From Candidatus Jorgensenbacteria bacterium CG03_land_8_20_14_0_80_38_39 (GTDB taxonomy: Bacteria > Patescibacteriota > Minisyncoccia > UBA6257 > GWB1-50-10): DNA of 58,711 nt. This document shows positions 18,716 through 43,049 of the stretch, in pieces; the stretch's first letter is position 1; each line of letters begins with the position of its first letter. The DNA is taken from the NCBI GenBank assembly GCA_002781185.1, contig PEUU01000020.1, positions 1 to 58,711 on the forward strand, read 5' to 3'. Position numbers and translations under genes: made by a program. The notes under the pieces are model-generated. The model did no database searches. It was not told where the DNA came from and was given only the letters and a program-made list of their open reading frames with translations.

Positions 18716-21082
18716 TTAAGTTCGAAGGCGCAGGTAAATTTCTTTTTCCACTTCTTGACGATTCCGGCCGTATTTCAAACGAGAAAGTTTCTTGAGCCCG
18801 GAAACAATTTGAGGGTCGCCTTTTAACGGCGCCGGGGTTTTAATATTAAAAGGGCTGGCGGGCTGATTATTAATTAATAATTTTACATGGGCATTAAAAT
18901 TATCAATATTAATCAGGTCGGAAATGGTAAAAATCGGTTCAAATTGTTTAACCACAAATTCGGCGTCTTGAGCACTAATGCGAAAAGCCGCCATTGAACC
19001 GACATTGCCAAAAACCGCATCCCGAATCTTCTCGGTTAATTGAGCGATGAACTGGTGGGCAATAATTAAATCAAGCCGGTATTTTCTGGCTTCGGAAAGA
19101 ATGGTGGCAATGGAGTCCGTTGAAAAATTTTGAAATTCGTCAATGTAAAGATAAAAATCTTGACGCTCGCTTTCCGGCGTATCAACCCGGCTGAAAGCAG
19201 CTTTCAAAAGCTTACCAATAATAACCATCCCCAAAAGGTTGGCGTTAATATCGCCGATTCGCCCTTTTGAAAGATTAACTATAAGGATTTTTCCCTCATC
19301 CATTATTTTTCTGAAATCAATTGTTGAACGAAACTGGCCAATAATTGGCCGGACATAATCATTGGTCAGAAAAACGTTGAACTTGGAAGTAATGTAAGGA
19401 GTTACGTTTTGAAGAGCGGCCTCGCCGCCAGCCTTAATTGCTTCTTTTGTCCAAAAATCAACCACGATAGGATTGCTAATCCGACTTAGTTTTCTTTCCC
19501 GGTAATCGGCATCGGTAAAAATTCTCGGGACTTCAGTCAAAGTTGCCGGTTCATTAGGCATATCTTCCATTAAAAGCTGCAGGGCATTTCTCAAATACTG
19601 CTCAAACATCGGGCCGCCCGTAGTTTTTAAATCGTAAAGTTTATCAAAAATCTCCAACATTTCATTAACAATGAAAGTTTTTTCTTCCGGCCGGTTAAAA
19701 TCGTATTCCAACATATTCAATCCAACGGGTTTTTCTAAATCCGAGGGGTCAAAAATAACGACGTCTTCAAATCTTTCTTGAGGAACCAAAGACAAAATAG
19801 CTTCGGCCGTGTCGCCGTGTGGGTCAATAATTGCTGCTCCTTTCCCTTTTTTAATATCGTCACTGACCATATTGCTTAACAACACTGATTTGCCGGTGCC
19901 GGTTTGCCCAATAATATAAAGGTGGCGACGCCGGTCTTTGTCGGTTAAATAAACCGGTTTTACTTGACCGCGAAACAAGCTCGTGCCGAGTAATAATCCT
20001 TTTTCCGGCAAATTCGCCGGCGGTTCCGCTTCCTTGGATTTAAGCCATTTTATTTTTGCTACTTCGGTAAAGACTGTTGGCAAATGAAAAATACTAACTA
20101 ATTCTTCGCTGTTTAAGACCATTGAAGTTTTAGAATCAAACTCCCTAAAAGAAAATTGATGAATAATTTTTTGCAAATTTTTTGGCTTTGTTATTTTAAA
20201 AAAATTGCGCTCCGGCGAAGCAAATTGAGAAAAACCGCCGGCTAAACTTTCTAAAATTGACTGGGCTTCCACTGGGTTGGTTGCCGAAGCCATCAAGCGA
20301 ACATTAACTTGAAAAAGCGGCTTGGAAAGCTTCATCTCCACGGCTTTGATGGCTGATTCGTCAATAACTTTTTCGCTTTTATTTTCTTTTTTCTCTGAAG
20401 GGCTCAAAGCTTCGGAAATATCCGCCATTGTCAGTTTCTCGGCTGATTCCGTGATTTTTCCTCCTTTTTTCACATTTTTTAAGACAGCGGCAATTTCTTT
20501 TTTAGTGGAAGGGAGCGCCGGTTGAACAACTACTTGAATTGCCCCGCCTTCTCCCAAAACATTAACCTTGGAAAGACCTCCTAAAATCGGCGAAAAGGTA
20601 TCGCTGTTTAATTCCTGATAAGTTTTTATCGGCAGGGCGGCTTTTTCTTTTTGAAAAACCAAAGCTCCCGCCGCAACGCCGTAATAATTAAAAATATTGT
20701 AATCCTCAACCGGCTCAACTTGAGACGCCGGAAAAAACGCTTGGATTTGCCTTTCCACCGAAGACAAATAAGAAGCGGGAACGGCTAAATAAAAAATAAT
20801 TTCCTCCCCCACATAAGGGACGGCGGCTTCAAAAATAAACGGTTTTTTTATTGAAGCTAAAGTGTTAAAAAGCTGTTCGGAAATATTTATTTCCTGCTTC
20901 AAATCTTTGCCTTCTTTTGAACTCTTAACTAGTTTAATGGCTAAAAGTTTTAATTGCAGTTCGTCCAAAAGTTTTTGATAGCGTTGCTTTTTAAAAAAAT
21001 GATAAAATAAAAAACCGCCGCCAGCCGCTAAAATTATTAAAAGAAGGAAATAAAAAAACATAGGCAATTTATTTGATGGCAC
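18716..21082 (-). CDS. Membrane-anchored P-loop ATPase, TraD/VirD4/DUF87 (HerA-FtsK-like) type
   Basis: 788 aa with an N-terminal TM segment, Walker A GQTGTGKS and Walker B-like YLYIDEFQNF. It lies directly downstream of the pilus genes. Confidence 0.65.
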   Translation of the reverse strand: MPSNKLPMFFYFLLLIILAAGGGFLFYHFFKKQRYQKLLDELQLKLLAIKLVKSSKEGKDLKQEINISEQLFNTLASIKKPFIFEAAVPYVGEEIIFYLAVPASYLSSVERQIQAFFPASQVEPVEDYNIFNYYGVAAGALVFQKEKAALPIKTYQELNSDTFSPILGGLSKVNVLGEGGAIQVVVQPALPSTKKEIAAVLKNVKKGGKITESAEKLTMADISEALSPSEKKENKSEKVIDESAIKAVEMKLSKPLFQVNVRLMASATNPVEAQSILESLAGGFSQFASPERNFFKITKPKNLQKIIHQFSFREFDSKTSMVLNSEELVSIFHLPTVFTEVAKIKWLKSKEAEPPANLPEKGLLLGTSLFRGQVKPVYLTDKDRRRHLYIIGQTGTGKSVLLSNMVSDDIKKGKGAAIIDPHGDTAEAILSLVPQERFEDVVIFDPSDLEKPVGLNMLEYDFNRPEEKTFIVNEMLEIFDKLYDLKTTGGPMFEQYLRNALQLLMEDMPNEPATLTEVPRIFTDADYRERKLSRISNPIVVDFWTKEAIKAGGEAALQNVTPYITSKFNVFLTNDYVRPIIGQFRSTIDFRKIMDEGKILIVNLSKGRIGDINANLLGMVIIGKLLKAAFSRVDTPESERQDFYLYIDEFQNFSTDSIATILSEARKYRLDLIIAHQFIAQLTEKIRDAVFGNVGSMAAFRISAQDAEFVVKQFEPIFTISDLINIDNFNAHVKLLINNQPASPFNIKTPAPLKGDPQIVSGLKKLSRLKYGRNRQEVEKEIYLRLRT

Positions 21083-28100: not shown

Positions 28101-28262
28101 TAGAGCAAAGCGAATTAAAAACTTTTTTGTTGTCCCAATAATCGTGCCTCGCTAATGTTCAGCACGATTTCGACAATAAATTTAATTAATCCACGCACAG
28201 CTTCCGCTACGCGTGCCTTGTTACGACTTCACCCATGTCACCGAGCTTACCCTAACCCAGCT

Positions 28263-39549: not shown

Positions 39550-40569
39550 TCAAATTCGTTTTATTCTTATTTTTAAATTTTTCCAGCGGGGGTTTTGAAA
39601 TTCTTCTTTAGTTAAAATCCCTTCGGTGGCGCCCATTTTTTCAACCACGGCGGTGGCATTGGCGCTGGCTAATTGAGCCGCTCCTATAACATCTTCGGGT
39701 TTCAGTTGAGAAATATTGAAACGATTAAATCCTTTTTGGACCAAAAAAGCAGTAAAGCCAGAACCAAAAGCATCACCGGCGCCGGTTCGATCAACTAATT
39801 TTTTCTCTTGAAATGTATCTACCTTATAAACAAAACGACCATCAGAAATTGTCGCTCCCTTTTTCCCATTGGTAACAGCTAAAATGCCGGGCATTAATTT
39901 ATCAAGTTTTTTAAAAACCTCTTTTTCTTTTTTAAAAGAAATGCCGGTTAATCTTGCTGCCTCCTCTTCATTTAAAACCAAAAAAGTGATGTCTTTTAAG
40001 GAAGCTAAAATCTCTTGAGGCCGATGGCTTAAATGGTAACCCGAAGGATTAACAGCCACGCTGATATTATTTTTTGAAGCGAATTTTATTAATCTTTGAA
40101 AAATCTTAATAGACCTACCTGTTAAAGAAACATACCACCACCGGCTTTTTAATTTTTTAAAATCCAAATCGGAAAAATCAAGGGTATCAGAAGCGCCGCG
40201 ATAATTAAGAATTGTCCTTTCTCCAGAGGAAAGCAAAAGAACGGAATAAGCAGTCGGTTTTTTTGAGGTTTGAATCAAAAGATTTAAAGAAACGCCTTCT
40301 TTTTTCAAACGACGCCTGATTTCTTCACCAGAAACATCTTCTCCAATTTTAGCCAGGCAAGCAGTTCTTAAACCCTGACGGCTAAAAGTGACGCTGGCAT
40401 TAATCGCATTGCCACCAATGGTAAAAAAAACATCCTCCACTTCCAATTTTTCTCCCAAAGGCAAAAGATAAGCCCAGCCTGAAGCCGCTTTCAAAAAATG
40501 AGTGAGCTTAAAATTGACTTTAAAAAAAGCATCTCTGGTGGCTGAACCAATAGCAATAATATCGTTCAT
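39550..40569 (-). CDS. PfkB-family carbohydrate kinase (ribokinase-like)
   Basis: The ATG at 40569 gives MNDIIAIGSATRDAF. The PfkB signature DRTGAGDAFGSGF is present. The track start at 40806 adds an implausible 79-aa leader. Confidence 0.85.
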   Translation of the reverse strand: MNDIIAIGSATRDAFFKVNFKLTHFLKAASGWAYLLPLGEKLEVEDVFFTIGGNAINASVTFSRQGLRTACLAKIGEDVSGEEIRRRLKKEGVSLNLLIQTSKKPTAYSVLLLSSGERTILNYRGASDTLDFSDLDFKKLKSRWWYVSLTGRSIKIFQRLIKFASKNNISVAVNPSGYHLSHRPQEILASLKDITFLVLNEEEAARLTGISFKKEKEVFKKLDKLMPGILAVTNGKKGATISDGRFVYKVDTFQEKKLVDRTGAGDAFGSGFTAFLVQKGFNRFNISQLKPEDVIGAAQLASANATAVVEKMGATEGILTKEEFQNPRWKNLKIRIKRI

Positions 40570-40630
40570 TTTAATTATTATACCAAAAAACAACTCTTTT
40601 AAATACTTTAATAAATTATTGAAAAATGAA

Positions 40631-40687
40631 TAAAAAACTCGATTCATGCCAAACAAATAATTTTTGTTCTTTAGGCCTGAATCGAGT
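40631..40687 (-). terminator. Intrinsic terminator (minus strand)
   Basis: The stem is actcgattca/tgaatcgagt with an inner aacaaa/tttgtt stem. A T-run follows on the minus strand (taaaaaa on the plus strand). Confidence 0.7.
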
Positions 40688-40714
40688 AAGCTGTGGCATC
40701 CATATTGACCTCCT

Positions 40715-40960
40715 TTAGATTCTCTTATTGCGGCTATCTTTAGCCAGTCGCAATTTGATTGGATTTTGGAAATTGATGAACTCGGTAAAAAGTTCATTAC
40801 CACCAACCCGGCGAAATACTATTTTTACAAAATTCTTTGCCGAGTCGTCGGTGAGTATTTCCTCAATCTCCTCTATGACTGCCGGCGTTACCCTGTCGGC
40901 AGTTTCTAATAATGCCACCATTGGAAGGCTATAAACACCTTCCTTAACATTTTCAGCCAA
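40715..40960 (-). CDS. Hypothetical small protein (island module 1)
   Basis: 81-aa ORF with a TTG start. The C-terminus LRLAKDSRNKRI is related to that of 41593-41901. Coding status is uncertain. Confidence 0.3.
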   Translation of the reverse strand: MAENVKEGVYSLPMVALLETADRVTPAVIEEIEEILTDDSAKNFVKIVFRRVGGNELFTEFINFQNPIKLRLAKDSRNKRI

Positions 40961-41222
40961 GGTTTTCCATTTTTGAAAAACGGACTGGTTAAAAACATAT
41001 CCCGGGTAGCTGTGCCTATGATTATAACATCAATCATTATTAAAATTATACCTTAAAAATGTAAAATTTTCTAGCATTGTTTATAAAAACAGCTATCATT
41101 AGGAGAACCCAGCGCCTGTTTTCGTTACGGAATGTCTCTTGACATCCGAAGCTTACAACAGGCTGATAGTGAAAAGATTTTTTCTAGTTAATCTAGATTG
41201 TAAATAACGCTATGATTTTTTA

Positions 41223-41266
41223 TTAATTTCTCATTAATTTCTCGTAGATTTCTCATAGATTTCTCA
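41223..41266. repeat. Four tandem 11-bp iteron-like repeats
   Basis: ttaatttctca ttaatttctcg tagatttctca tagatttctca. A further aatttctca lies at about 41436. Confidence 0.85.
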
Positions 41267-41486
41267 AATCTCTAGTTAACATTATATAGGATTAATCTTT
41301 TATAACGTCTTATAAAGAGTAACGTTTTATAAATAATTGTGAAATATTATTAAAGAGCTAGTCATTTTCAAATTAATTTCTAATTCTAGAAATAAGCCGG
41401 TAAAACTATACAAGTCAATTATTATTTATCCTAATAATTTCTCATACTTATACTCAAAAAATTATCTGCTAATGAATGGGCTTTGC

Positions 41487-41550
41487 AAAAAAAAATAAAA
41501 ACTCGACTCACGCTCAGACATTTTGAATGTCGTCAGTGCATGAATCGAGT
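41487..41550 (-). terminator. Intrinsic terminator (minus strand), paralog of 40631-40687
   Basis: The stem is actcgactca/tgaatcgagt with an inner gacatt/aatgtc stem. A T-run follows on the minus strand. Confidence 0.7.
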
Positions 41551-41592
41551 TAGTTCCTGAGTGGGTAACATGGCTAAGCTCCTCTAGTGGGT

Positions 41593-41901
41593 TTATAGAG
41601 TTAGAAACACCATCTTCCCTCTACTGTCCTTGGCGATCTTTAGCGTCTGGGGGTTCTCTTTGGTGATAACGACAGTTTCCTTCTGCCCAAGCTTCCATAA
41701 ATTTAGCTTTCGAACCTCCAGTTCAATAACTATTTTGGCAGGGTCCCGGTCGTGCCGCACCACCACTTTCTCAATTTCATACCCCATCTTGCTACTGGTG
41801 TTCTCAACAATCCCACAAAGAGGAGGAATATACTCTTCCATCCCAATCAGCGTCGCCAGCATCTCCCACTCAGCTACGACGCTCACCCACTGCTTTTTCA
41901 T
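41593..41901 (-). CDS. Hypothetical protein (island module 2)
   Basis: 102 aa with an ATG preceded by the SD-like aaggaaggtg 6 nt upstream and a duplicated ataagaaagg. The C-terminal LKIAKDSRGK is related to module 1. Confidence 0.45.
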   Translation of the reverse strand: MKKQWVSVVAEWEMLATLIGMEEYIPPLCGIVENTSSKMGYEIEKVVVRHDRDPAKIVIELEVRKLNLWKLGQKETVVITKENPQTLKIAKDSRGKMVFLTL

Positions 41902-42056
41902 AGCACACCTTCCTTTCTTATCCTTTCTTATGAAATTGTAAATTTGCTCCCTTTTTCTATTATAGAAAAGTAAAAAGAAATATCAACCTTTTAAAAATTT
42001 TTTTAACTGGGGTTTCAATTAGTTTGAGTGGCTTGGCCGCTTAACTTAGGCGCTGA

Positions 42057-43049
42057 TTATCTTTTTCTTTTAAGAGCCTTCTTAACAGCCATCTTTATAT
42101 GCGATATCCCTATTCCATATTTCTCCAAAAGTTGGGCGGGTGAACCTGATTCACCAAAGACATTTTTGATGCCGACGAATTCAATGGGCACTGGCTGTTT
42201 TTGGGCTAAAACCTCACTGACCGCGCTTCCCAATCCTCCGTAAACTTGATGTTCTTCCACTGTTACTATGGCTCTATATTTTTTAGCCAATTCAACAATC
42301 GTTTTTTCATCAAGAGGTTTAATAGTATGACAATTGACAACGACGACGCCGATTTTTTCTTTTTCCAATTCTTGAGCAGCCAAAAGAGCGTTGAATAAAA
42401 TCGGACCGCAGCCAATAATAGCCACCTGCGGCTTTCGCGATTGATAAAAAATTTCTGCTTTCCCGGGAATGAATGACGTTTCTTCAGTTGTTAAAACCGG
42501 AGTTTTTTCCCGGTTGAATCTTAAATAAACCGGCCCCCAGATTTTTGCCGCGGCAACCGTGGCTTTTTTAGCTTCAATCGCGTCGCAAGGAACAATAACT
42601 TTCATATTGGGCATTGAACGCATCAAAACAATATCTTCGGTTGCCTGATGAGTAGCGCCGTCAGGACCAACAGAAATACCCGAATGATGGCCGGCAATTT
42701 TCACATTAGAATCATTGTAAGCAATCGTTGTCCGGATTTGCTCCCAATTTCTTCCCGGCGAAAAAACCGCGTAAGAAGAGATAAAAGGAATTTTGCCGGA
42801 GATGCCTAAACCGGCGGCAATGGTTGCCATATTTTGTTCGGCGATTCCGCATTCAAAAAATCTTTCGGGAAATTTTTTGGCAAAGGCTTCGCAACGAGTG
42901 GATTCAATTAAGTCCGCGCACAAAACAACCACATTAGGATTTTCTTCACCGGCAATCAAAAGACCTTCACCATAGCCATCGCGCGTCGGTTTTTGCTCGA
43001 TATCGGCATCAAATAGTTTGGGGTTCAATTTGAGATTTGGGTTGATCAT
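42057..43049 (-). CDS. Transketolase, C-terminal half (pyrimidine-binding + C-terminal domains)
   Basis: 330 aa with motifs ECGIAEQNM and GPDGATHQ. Confidence 0.9.
   Translation of the reverse strand: MINPNLKLNPKLFDADIEQKPTRDGYGEGLLIAGEENPNVVVLCADLIESTRCEAFAKKFPERFFECGIAEQNMATIAAGLGISGKIPFISSYAVFSPGRNWEQIRTTIAYNDSNVKIAGHHSGISVGPDGATHQATEDIVLMRSMPNMKVIVPCDAIEAKKATVAAAKIWGPVYLRFNREKTPVLTTEETSFIPGKAEIFYQSRKPQVAIIGCGPILFNALLAAQELEKEKIGVVVVNCHTIKPLDEKTIVELAKKYRAIVTVEEHQVYGGLGSAVSEVLAQKQPVPIEFVGIKNVFGESGSPAQLLEKYGIGISHIKMAVKKALKRKR

Follow-up and report, generated by a model that had tools for sequence, protein, structure and literature searches.

Two small-gene cassettes between a transketolase and a PfkB kinase gene form a probable recombinational mosaic in a Candidatus Jorgensenbacteria genome

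What occupies the 1.49-kb gap (40570-42056) that separates a PfkB-family kinase gene (39550-40569, minus strand) from the transketolase gene TktC (42057-43049, minus strand) in a 58,711-nt stretch of Candidatus Jorgensenbacteria DNA (hereafter, the window), and how did it arise? An initial annotation, made from the sequence alone, described an AT-rich island with two related small ORFs and 11-bp iteron-like repeats, and suggested either a phage or plasmid remnant carrying a replication or partition site, or a novel small-gene system. We find all of the sequence features that it listed where it placed them, and propose that the stretch is probably a mosaic, produced when two diverged versions of one chromosomal locus recombined illegitimately. 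Read from TktC to PfkB, the gap contains the ORF102 cassette in intact form, a spacer of 415 bp, a PfkB relic of 97 bp and a 5'-truncated ORF81 cassette, followed by the working PfkB gene; both cassette types (ORF102-type and ORF111-type) stand here in tandem, and relatives hold a single cassette. We regard the mosaic structure, its junction, the cassette architecture and the conservation of that architecture as established. Only 41001-41500 is markedly AT-rich (GC 0.27); the two ORF segments are genome-like in composition (0.35 and 0.43 vs. 0.38 for the genome).

Both small proteins belong to one family, which we designate ORFx. The ORFx cassette spans about 500 bp and comprises a predicted promoter, a leader of 30-50 nt within which lies the SD-like sequence AAAGGAGGTG, an ORF encoding about 100 aa, another SD-like site with a mini-ORF, and a predicted terminator that the mini-ORF enters at its 5' arm. 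The corresponding features in the window are as follows.

41959-41986, minus strand: predicted sigma-70-type promoter of the ORF102 cassette, TTGATA-16-TATAAT, matching the consensus at 11 of 12 positions and also conserved in both L010 and L011
41906-41915, minus strand: SD-like AAGGAAGGTG, 4 nt ahead of the ORF102 ATG, with a (G)AAAGGAGGTG counterpart in 12 other lineages
41593-41901, minus strand: ORF102, the intact ORFx gene, 102 aa, from the ORF call and homologues
41533-41584, minus strand: SD-like GAGGAG (41584-41579) and 12-codon mini-ORF MLPTQELTRFMH (41571-41533), N7 spacing to the ATG, overlapping the terminator 5' arm
41483-41551, minus strand: predicted intrinsic terminator belonging to the ORF102 cassette; its basal stem of 14 bp includes two sense-strand U.G wobbles and is followed by a T-run
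40718-40984, minus strand: ORF81, a 5'-truncated ORFx of the second type (called ORF, 40715-40960), from the ORF call and homology to ORF111 of L016
40671-40715, minus strand: SD-like AAGGAGG (40715-40709) and 10-codon mini-ORF MDATAYSIQA (40703-40671), N6 spacing, overlapping the terminator 5' arm
40628-40687, minus strand: predicted intrinsic terminator of the ORF81 cassette, a hairpin then a T-run

The promoter, leader and SD-like site are found in 13 lineages, and the terminator with its mini-ORF at 14 of 14 loci; among 36 other terminators of the same genome, 6 have a mini-ORF that extends into the 5' arm. Both pairs of SD-like site and mini-ORF, AAGGAGG-N6-ATG for MDATAYSIQA and GAGGAG-N7-ATG for MLPTQELTRFMH, are as first described, and the L016 counterpart of the former peptide, at the equivalent position, reads MNATSYSIQA. 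Each module has a hairpin and T-run (40687-40628 and 41551-41483) on the common base ACTCGAYTCA/TGARTCGAGT, a sequence with no further occurrence in the 550-kb assembly. Their stems of 10-14 bp, followed by T-runs, lie 30-44 nt past the two stop codons, and an alignment of seven sequences has 93.8% of basal-stem cells paired, with three compensatory pairs and U.G wobbles solely on the sense strand. A simple consensus terminator scan missed both hairpins because their loops exceed its 8-nt limit. A PaaX-type operator, considered from the GATTCA...TGAATC motif, was set aside, as the wobble pairs and T-run favour an RNA hairpin, and an integron attC site was rejected from the sequence, the hairpin having neither the RYYYAAC nor the GTTRRRY core; no alternative antiterminator pairing was seen in single-sequence folds.

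Leader-peptide transcription attenuators are known as the trp, his and pyrBI type, and the ORFx cassette shares with them a short ORF directly upstream of an intrinsic terminator that enters its 5' arm; a translating ribosome would therefore block hairpin formation. The mini-ORF might in this way couple translation to termination, with transcription reading through when a ribosome covers the 5' arm of the hairpin, a speculative idea that we find doubtful. Unlike those attenuators, the ORFx mini-ORF trails the protein gene rather than leading an operon and contains no run of regulatory codons, the genes downstream of the cassettes (PfkB, PCMT) have their own predicted promoters, and the host 16S offers no anti-SD to read the SD-like site, whose inability to pair weakens models that need efficient initiation at the mini-ORF.

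ORF102 and ORF81 are homologous over about 88 residues with 27% identity (E = 4e-4 for ORF102 in tblastn against the whole genome, 9e-8 in pairwise blastp), and the relatedness first noticed at their C-termini extends beyond them. The similarity of ORF81 to ORF102 continues upstream of the called ORF81 start, as far as 40984. An AlphaFold2 model of ORF102 (pLDDT 91.5, pTM 0.83) consists of one N-terminal helix and five beta-strands, and ORFx is a fast-evolving alpha+beta protein of about 100 aa, with 27-39% identity inside one bacterial family. Searches of Pfam, NCBIfam and PHROGs with ORF81, ORF102 and the relic ORF return only sub-threshold noise (PH_PRMT_N, TRAM), a PDB sequence-profile search with ORF102 gives no match, and the family to which both ORFs belong is very rare. 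Foldseek comparison of the ORF102 model with PDB and BFVD yields nothing significant (best PDB E-value 0.15, TM 0.27-0.43; best viral-library E-value 0.03); the weak top matches include Sm proteins, Gemin6/7, the Pelota N-domain, eIF5A and the MTR4 KOW domain. The predicted topology, an N-terminal helix and then five strands, resembles that of the Sm/Hfq-like and KOW/eIF5A-N small beta-barrels, and the order of secondary structure fits an Sm/Hfq-like fold; however, the Sm chains match non-significantly (E = 0.34-0.94, TM 0.29-0.39), there is no significant structural or sequence-profile match, and we do not claim membership.

All members of ORFx that we found are from Candidatus Jorgensenbacteria (CPR/Parcubacteria). 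Among 1.84 billion representative proteins a phmmer search gives three matches, profile searches of 5.8 billion clusters give eight proteins, and a six-frame search of 100 relatives places ORFx in 9, all of the same family, and in none of the 40 genomes of other families; a scan of genome contigs with ORF102 found no relative. In these nine ORFx is chromosomal, the eight strong matches, in eight genomes of seven genera, lie beside Ddl, PCMT or both, and overall the cassette occurs in three different genomic contexts. For both cassettes, dS to the nearest relatives is 0.65-0.80, vs. 1.8-2.0 for the adjacent TktC 3' end, a contrast that involves about 55 synonymous sites per gene and a TktC value near saturation. 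From these comparisons the cassette looks to have been horizontally exchanged among related CPR lineages, so that the stretch is, in a narrow sense, non-native here. The alternative offered alongside it, a novel small-gene system, fares better: the cassette is undescribed, self-contained and SD-led, with a patchy distribution over those three contexts.

Autonomous promoter-gene-terminator units between conserved genes are known from phages as 'morons' (the Hendrix/Juhala concept). The ORFx cassette is likewise self-contained, with a predicted promoter, an RBS-like site and a predicted terminator; it lies between two genes that stand side by side in relatives, is patchily distributed, and has translation signals that differ from those of the host backbone. 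The ORF102 cassette in particular has the predicted promoter TTGATA-16-TATAAT and a predicted terminator, and sits at a place where TktC and PfkB are 0-167 nt apart in most relatives of this PfkB type with both genes on the contig. Unlike morons, the cassette resides in a bacterial chromosome without phage homologues, adds an SD-like site and mini-ORF that overlap the terminator, and is stable beside Ddl and/or PCMT in eight other genomes.

An autonomous unit of this kind could also be a mobile addiction or defence module, toxin-antitoxin-like, in which the small protein acts with the micro-peptide and the tandem reflects competition between, or replacement of, incompatible alleles. Its patchy occurrence (9 of 100 relatives), very fast divergence (27-39% identity in one family), autonomy in three contexts, and the apparent displacement of one allele by another at this locus fit such a module, as does a mini-ORF N-terminus, MSxCS, that is kept in four lineages despite synonymous codon switches. 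We nonetheless give this reading little credence, since no Pfam toxin or antitoxin domain matches, the frame and length of the mini-ORF here differ from those in L009 and L011 by a 2-nt indel, the peptides, 7 to 53 aa long, are hydrophilic, and the gene keeps its place by Ddl and/or PCMT across seven genera (eight genomes), which looks vertical.

Related lineages are represented by four short contigs of 0.9-2 kb (L009, L010, L011 and L016), which serve as stand-ins for the two parents of the mosaic. L011 has the order TktC-ORF102 (74% aa identity)-hairpin-PfkB; L016 has TktC-ORF111-SD/mini-ORF-hairpin and then a PfkB promoter at the contig end; in L010 the cassette follows a PfkB relic beside a TrpR-like gene. 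Relatives with the same PfkB type and both flanks on the contig have the order TktC-PfkB-g417 with a gap of 0-167 nt, and TktC and PfkB are directly adjacent in most of them. One genome (G018) instead carries an unrelated insert of about 870 bp at this junction. The features of the window that bear on the origin of the tandem are these.

40972-41050, minus strand: relic of an L011-type PfkB, with TATAAT (41050-41045), 7 nt, a predicted leaderless ATG (41037) and 21 codons, MIDVIIIGTATRDMFLTSPFFK
40971-40980, minus strand: recombination junction at the microhomology TTTTTCAAAA, from a three-way comparison
39550-40585, minus strand: working PfkB-family kinase gene; a predicted extended -10 box, TGGTATAAT (40585-40577), precedes its ATG (40569) by 7 nt

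The relic is 93% identical to the 5' end of the L009 and L011 PfkB genes, the latter of which begins MIDVITIGTATRDMFLTSPFFKIIKD. Over 97 bp, from 41067 to 40971, the window is 93-94% identical to the L011/L009 PfkB promoter and 5' end, and the match stops exactly at 40971; from 40980 to 40575 it is 81% identical to L016. The two matches overlap in TTTTT(C/G)AAAA, 10 nt within which three-way comparison with L011 and L016 places the crossover, and the upstream side follows L011 PfkB and the downstream side L016 ORF111, in a different frame. An assembly chimera is unlikely because at least eight independent assemblies share the junction. Downstream of it, ORF81 has 82% DNA and 78% protein identity to the 111-aa gene of L016, and has no promoter, no leader and not the first ~22 codons, which include the first half of a conserved helix. 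The working PfkB is only 41% identical to L011 PfkB, vs. 57-69% to the PfkB of nine relatives, and the spacing of its -10 box to the ATG suggests a leaderless mRNA. We also considered whether the working gene is a xenologue that arrived with ORF81, and rejected this since the relatives with 57-69% identical PfkB retain the TktC-PfkB-g417 order.

These observations are most simply joined in a recombination model. The ORF102-type cassette would have brought along 21 codons from the start of the PfkB allele next to it, and this incoming piece would have been joined out of frame, at the 10-nt microhomology, to codon ~22 of an ORF111-type cassette. The working PfkB looks vertical, which favours the ORF102 piece as the incoming one. 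The event presumably followed uptake of DNA from a related lineage, as in homology-facilitated illegitimate recombination, which de Vries and Wackernagel are said to have described during natural transformation. As in that process, DNA of a related lineage would have been joined here at a 10-nt microhomology, out of register, beside homologous sequence, and truncated genes are left at the junction; DNA uptake by this organism is an assumption of the model. The event appears to be recent: the relic has no stop codon ahead of the junction and 3 differences from L011 in 66 nt, and ORF81 retains an intact frame with an omega of 0.17 against L016 ORF111. We infer that ORF81 is a young pseudogene. 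The low omega would also be expected of a still-functional gene. L010 presents a counter-case as to which half was resident, the resident PfkB there being the cut one.

Tandem duplication within the lineage, followed by divergence, would account for the tandem layout itself, and would make both genes functional paralogues, with ORF81 expressed by a frameshift from the leaderless relic start or from an internal start. The open frame and omega of ORF81, the 93% conservation of the relic promoter and start, and the fixation of the structure in all sampled strains agree with it. However, other lineages have one or the other type singly at this junction (78-81% DNA identity), the two types are only 27% protein-identical to each other, and the PfkB clade of the relic shares 41% identity with the working gene. 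Moreover, ORF81 is without its first ~22 residues and has no in-frame ATG before Met14, and the junction is out of frame; programmed frameshifting into ORF81 was rejected, with no canonical X XXY YYZ slippery heptamer seen in the junction sequence. Duplication is in our view improbable, and recombination between diverged alleles is the reading we retain.

There remains the AT-rich part of the gap, with the 11-bp repeats.

41068-41482, no strand assigned: AT-rich spacer, GC 0.27, missing from L009 and L011
41072-41212, no strand assigned: 141-bp element with inverted-repeat ends TAGCATTGTTTATAA / TTGTAAATAACGCTA, 12 of 15 matching, and a structured core at 41092-41170
41225-41266, no strand assigned: 11-bp tandem repeat, unit GAGAAATCTAT (minus strand), 3.8 copies, 87% matches
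41184-41192 and 41265-41273, no strand assigned: TCTAGTTAA boxes flanking the 11-bp array

From 41060 to 41495 the sequence is 99.8-100% identical in seven same-species contigs, and an eighth reads N across 41189-41338. The 11-bp array is real, but its reading as iterons is not borne out: in 550 kb, 204 TRF arrays score at least as high, or one per 2.7 kb, and the period is 8-14 in about 60 of these. The duplicated CTAGTTAA boxes are likewise present twice in the spacer, out of seven occurrences in the whole genome. The possible structured RNA is upheld by folding, 41080-41195 being more stable than shuffles on both strands (z = -2.7 and -3.3). This segment falls in the 141-bp element, a longer relative of which lies on another contig (C34, ~18830-19110) with perfect 12-bp terminal repeats; measured against MITEs, the element has terminal repeats matching at 12 of 15 positions, two copies in the genome and no identified target-site duplication. 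The other 274 bp of the spacer (41213-41486) have no homologue, and a supposed connection of the palindrome at 41279-41300 with its look-alike on C34 was discarded, the latter being just one more AT-rich intergenic region. No Rfam family matches inside the gap, whether the region is searched at E<=1 or the whole window at the gathering score, and no tRNA genes were found. Elsewhere in the window, Rfam matches only the 16S and the 16S group I intron. The 11-bp array, like most of the spacer, is repeat DNA of the kind usual between the genes of this genome; one part of the spacer is a small element with inverted-repeat ends.

A phage or plasmid remnant, with the 11-bp repeats as iterons or a partition site, is extremely improbable. 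The AT-rich core (GC 0.27), repeats in helical phase, SD-led genes inside an SD-less genome, and the absence of the stretch from relatives with adjacent TktC and PfkB speak for such a remnant. Yet a DNA search of 50,697 phage and 72,556 plasmid records finds no match, tblastn of ORF102 finds no protein match in the phage records, and the gap ORFs have no match in PHROG. The region contains no rep, par or integrase genes and no att-like direct repeats at its borders beyond chance; the 11-bp unit is in tandem nowhere else in the genome, comparable arrays are as common as noted above, and cumulative GC skew has no turning point at the gap. The ORF102 module is, in addition, syntenic in the related lineage L011, and in eight other genomes, which represent seven genera, ORFx has a conserved chromosomal site by Ddl and/or PCMT. 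A false lead is thereby removed: the stretch is neither a replicon nor a prophage fragment, and its 'iterons' are ordinary repeat DNA here.

The SD-like sites bring us to the ribosome that would have to read them. The 16S tail, GGATTAATTAAAT, contains no CCTCC, as first noted, and CCTCC is missing likewise in 28 of 28 same-family or same-order relatives in which the 16S 3' end was located. SD-like motifs had been described as otherwise absent from the genome; they show no enrichment upstream of 439 long ORFs (8.7% vs. 8.4% background), but are rare rather than absent, with about a dozen other AAGGAGG-N4-9-ATG sites. We searched for an orphan anti-SD copy elsewhere and set the idea aside from three of the four CACCTCCTT matches: the two nearest to the 16S tail fall inside coding regions, a third is the reverse complement of an SD-like site on C22, and the fourth is on C19. 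Tsurumaki et al. (2022, RNA 28:1041, PMC9297842) give the share of Parcubacteria with the CCTCCT motif as only 48%, and this 16S and those of the 28 relatives, ending in GGAT(C/T)AATTAAAT-like sequence without CCTCC, are of the same anti-SD-less kind; the passages of that paper on the topic do not mention a minority of genes retaining perfect SD-like leaders. Our literature search found no description of SD-led cassettes in Parcubacteria. Since the 16S has no anti-SD, the role of the conserved SD-like sites is unexplained.

That anti-SD-less Parcubacteria still keep perfect SD-like leaders on a few accessory genes sharpens this open question, and the ORFx cassette, with two SD-like sites conserved across 13 lineages, is small enough for testing the role of the motif. 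The conserved AAAGGAGGTG leaders cannot pair with the host 16S. One tentative proposal, which we consider unlikely, is that ORFx cassettes exemplify a pool of swappable, self-contained genes in anti-SD-less Parcubacteria, perhaps including the other SD-led small genes of this genome, whose leaders would therefore be read by something else, either another RNA or a factor of their own, for which ORFx might serve if it is a small RNA-binding barrel, the SD-like site, mini-ORF and terminator together forming a translation-sensing 3' switch. ORFx is an undescribed protein family of about a dozen known members, always in the same five-part cassette, with a confidently predicted fold that has no significant structural neighbour. 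At this locus, a base-precise, microhomology-mediated junction of diverged alleles documents recombination in an uncultured bacterium, and two recent remnants mark it, a PfkB stub of 21 codons and a small gene cut at its 5' end. We take this as direct evidence that genes flow among CPR lineages at one hot spot, the TktC/PfkB junction.

The 1.49-kb gap in the window between the genes for the C-terminal transketolase half (TktC) and the PfkB-family kinase (PfkB) holds two copies of a small-protein gene family, here ORFx, on the minus strand shared by all genes around them. Features discussed below are as follows.

42057-43049, minus strand: TktC.
41593-41901, minus strand: ORF102, the intact ORFx copy, in the TktC-PfkB gap.
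41072-41212: inverted-repeat element of 141 bp, with 15-bp inverted repeats (12/15 matching) and a structured core.
40715-40960, minus strand: ORF81 as called, the second ORFx copy, in the same gap.
39550-40569, minus strand: PfkB-family kinase (Pfam E 8e-43).
28181-28260, minus strand: 16S 3′ tail, GGAT(C/T)AATTAAAT-like, a form also present in 28 relatives.

The assembly (37 contigs, 550 kb, GC 0.38) carries the window as its contig C4, and the locus recurs identically in NCBI contig PFVC01000026.1 (GCA_002790415.1) as well as in many ENA and JGI metagenome contigs. The initial annotation saw here an AT-rich island with two ORFs related at their C-termini. The description as AT-rich fits the middle 500 bp (GC 0.27) but not the ORF-bearing parts, which are of normal composition, and the relationship goes beyond the C-terminus, with homology over ~88 residues at 27% identity (tblastn E 4e-4, ORF102 as query against the whole genome) that reaches 40984, upstream of the called ORF81 start.

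Short metagenome contigs (0.9-2 kb) of related lineages show the same junction in simpler form. One, L011, has the order TktC, ORF102 homologue (74% amino acid identity), hairpin and PfkB, the last starting MIDVITIGTATRDMFLTSPFFKIIKDPEH; another, L016, has TktC followed by a 111-aa gene, the full-length homologue of ORF81, and then AAGGAGG, a mini-ORF (MNATSYSIQA), a window-like hairpin and a PfkB promoter at the contig end, and is 81% identical to window 40980-40575. These contigs indicate that the ORF102 and ORF111 types each stand alone at the TktC/PfkB junction in separate lineages. The working PfkB of the window shares just 41% identity with the L011-type PfkB and 57-69% with PfkB in nine related genomes, where contigs with both flanks keep the order TktC-PfkB-g417; the first two of these genes are usually separated by 0-167 nt.

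Alignment of the window with these contigs resolves it into a mosaic. Window 41987-41492, the ORF102 cassette from promoter through terminator, is 78-79% identical to L011 and a further contig, L009; at window 41067-40971 there is 93-94% identity to the L011-type PfkB, over its promoter and first 21 codons, and the match stops at 40971. From 40980 on, the window instead tracks ORF111 of L016, from about codon 22 and in a different frame. A three-way alignment places the crossover within 10 nt of microhomology (slash, junction): L011 reads CCGTTTTTCAAAA/TTATT, L016 reads GAGATTTTTGAAAA/ATGGAAAATC, and the window reads CCGTTTTTCAAAA/ATGGAAAACC. This crossover makes the short ORF at 40906-41037 (MIDVIIIGTATRDMFLTSPFFK...) a PfkB stub, and ORF81 an ORFx gene cut at its 5′ end, lacking a promoter, leader and start codon of its own. 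In the most economical history, an ancestor with TktC, an ORF111-like gene and PfkB would have acquired DNA of the form ...ORF102-terminator-PfkB′, its source being an L011-like lineage, followed by illegitimate joining of this DNA at the microhomology; transfer in the reverse direction is a conceivable, if less economical, alternative. The recombination event looks recent, since only 3/66 coding positions of the PfkB stub depart from L011 and the ORF81 frame is open, with an omega of 0.17 against L016; neither fossil has decayed, and the mosaic is fixed across all sampled strains at 99.5-100% identity.

Another contig, L010, has the order TrpR-like gene, 35-codon PfkB stub, ORF103 homologue and hairpin, and L009 shows a complete L011-type PfkB coming next. 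The L010 stub (585-842; MFDIITIGTATRDVFLTGAAIKVLKDPKHLKEIGL...), beside the TrpR-like gene and directly upstream of the ORFx cassette, is an independent second PfkB 5′ stub, from which it follows that cassette-plus-PfkB units have interrupted a resident PfkB on more than one occasion. At the TktC/PfkB junction of one of the nine genomes above, from another genus (G018; locus L035, 2484-3351), lies an unrelated ~870-bp insert that contains an antisense ORF along with the hairpin CTTACGAGGTTTAACCTCGTAAG in three copies, which suggests that this junction is an insertion hot spot.

Between the ORF102 cassette and the PfkB stub, the 415-bp spacer 41068-41482 is missing from L009 and L011, which have ~35 nt instead. 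Its inverted-repeat element has a single longer relative among those found, an intergenic ~280-bp element at C34:18830-19110 (locus L017, 1830-2110) of the same assembly, whose terminal inverted repeats (GCGTTGTTTACA) are perfect over 12 bp and which has long GC-rich hairpins (fold z -4.0) and no match in Rfam. The 11-bp repeats described as iteron-like do form an array (3.8 copies, 87% matches), but nothing supports a replication or partition role. Comparable short-period arrays abound in this genome (204 in 550 kb). No homologue was found of the array or of the remaining spacer outside 41072-41212, 274 bp in all.

The SD-like motif, mini-ORF and long hairpin with T-run reported 3′ of each ORF are all present. 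ORFx has a predicted TTGACA/TATAAT-type promoter, a 30-50-nt leader and (G)AAAGGAGGTG 5-8 nt 5′ of its ATG in 13 lineages; for window ORF102 these are a predicted TTGATA-16-TATAAT promoter and the SD-like AAGGAAGGTG. Both hairpin bases read ACTCGAYTCA/TGARTCGAGT, found nowhere else in the assembly. In 14/14 ORFx loci the predicted terminator starts 26-69 nt past the stop and an ATG mini-ORF, begun between stop and stem, enters its 5′ arm; 11 of these 14 mini-ORFs have an SD-like motif in front. A comparable mini-ORF occurs at only 6/36 other terminators of the same position class in the window's genome. Basal stem pairing is 93.8% over seven sequences, with three compensatory pairs, and the U.G wobbles are compatible with the sense-strand RNA only.

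Two observations on the mini-ORF peptide point in different directions. The N-terminus MSxCS is common to four divergent lineages despite synonymous switches at Ser2 (TCA, AGC or TCC), which argues for translation, whereas a 2-nt indel shifts the frame between the window ORF102 type and L009/L011, so that in this clade the presence of a mini-ORF, but not its peptide, appears conserved. A ribosome on the mini-ORF would mask the 5′ arm and so lower termination, a mechanism we consider possible but doubtful; in single-sequence folds, neither an alternative RNA structure nor regulatory codons appeared. Genes 3′ of the cassette have their own predicted promoters, and PfkB genes of this family carry TATAAT 6-8 nt 5′ of the ATG (window 40577-40585 and 41045-41050; loci L031, L033, L036 and L037), a spacing that predicts leaderless mRNAs. 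A second example of AGAAAGGAGGTG leading a mini-ORF, here of 33 codons, that enters a terminator lies outside the window at C22 ~5842 (minus strand), 3′ of a gene built from (GDVSxIxG)n repeats.

As initially noted, the 16S lacks an anti-SD: its 3′ tail is GGATTAATTAAAT, with no CCTCC, which is also missing in 28/28 same-family or same-order relatives with a located 16S 3′ end (loci L041-L068). Loss of the anti-SD in one Parcubacteria subgroup has already been published (PMC9297842). No orphan anti-SD was found outside coding regions of the window's assembly among the three of four matches examined. SD-like motifs before long ORFs show no enrichment (8.7% versus 8.4% background), and the perfect AAAGGAGGTG before ORFx is kept in anti-SD-less genomes, including the ORFx-bearing G020, G025, G031 and G036. 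The initial point about these motifs stands in this sharper form. ORFx is not their sole carrier: AAGGAGG-N4-9-ATG outnumbers its reversed control 12 to 6 in the window's genome, 32 to 9 in G036 and 39 to 21 in G025, and most of the other cases in the window's genome belong to small membrane-protein genes that possess a predicted promoter and terminator of their own. SD-led genes concentrate, although the 16S has no anti-SD, at C35:200-4700 (minus strand, outside the window), a small membrane-protein gene cluster (70, 116/82, 47 and 84 aa) in which two paralogues each have a predicted TTGACA-type promoter, AGAAAGGAGGTTTTTCTATG and a strong predicted terminator.

ORFx is rare. Exhaustive phmmer of 1.84 billion representative proteins returns 3 homologues of ORF102, profile searches of 5.8 billion clusters return 8 proteins, and a six-frame search through the genomes of 100 relatives adds 9 genomes, all of the same taxonomic family, with none in 40 genomes from the order's other families. 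Homologues' source names assign ORFx to Candidatus Jorgensenbacteria. In other genera the ORFx site is marked by Ddl and PCMT; in the window's assembly, tblastn finds no D-Ala-D-Ala ligase gene and PCMT lies at C19:6230-6853. The confident AlphaFold2 model from a seven-sequence alignment (pLDDT 91.5, pTM 0.83) opens with a helix, residues 5-20, and continues with five strands, and the C-terminal motif P-aromatic-x-hydrophobic-K-x-G-x-D-x-x-G-K-x-V-F-L is conserved. Foldseek gives nothing significant (best E 0.15 in PDB, 0.03 in viral models); weak matches include Sm, Gemin, Pelota-N, eIF5A and KOW-type small RNA-binding barrels, and an RNA-binding role may be taken as a lead only.

Both cassettes have a synonymous divergence of 0.65-0.80 from their nearest relatives, against 1.8-2.0 for the adjacent TktC 3′ end, on small site counts, and the ORFx cassette occurs in three genomic contexts; together these suggest, though not firmly, exchange of the cassette among lineages. 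The initial observation is thus borne out. No rep or par genes, skew turning point or similarity to phages or plasmids were found, and neither a replication or partition role nor a phage or plasmid remnant is supported. It is the alternative offered alongside them, a novel small-gene system, that gains support: a lineage-specific, moron-like cassette within what looks to be a recent recombination scar.
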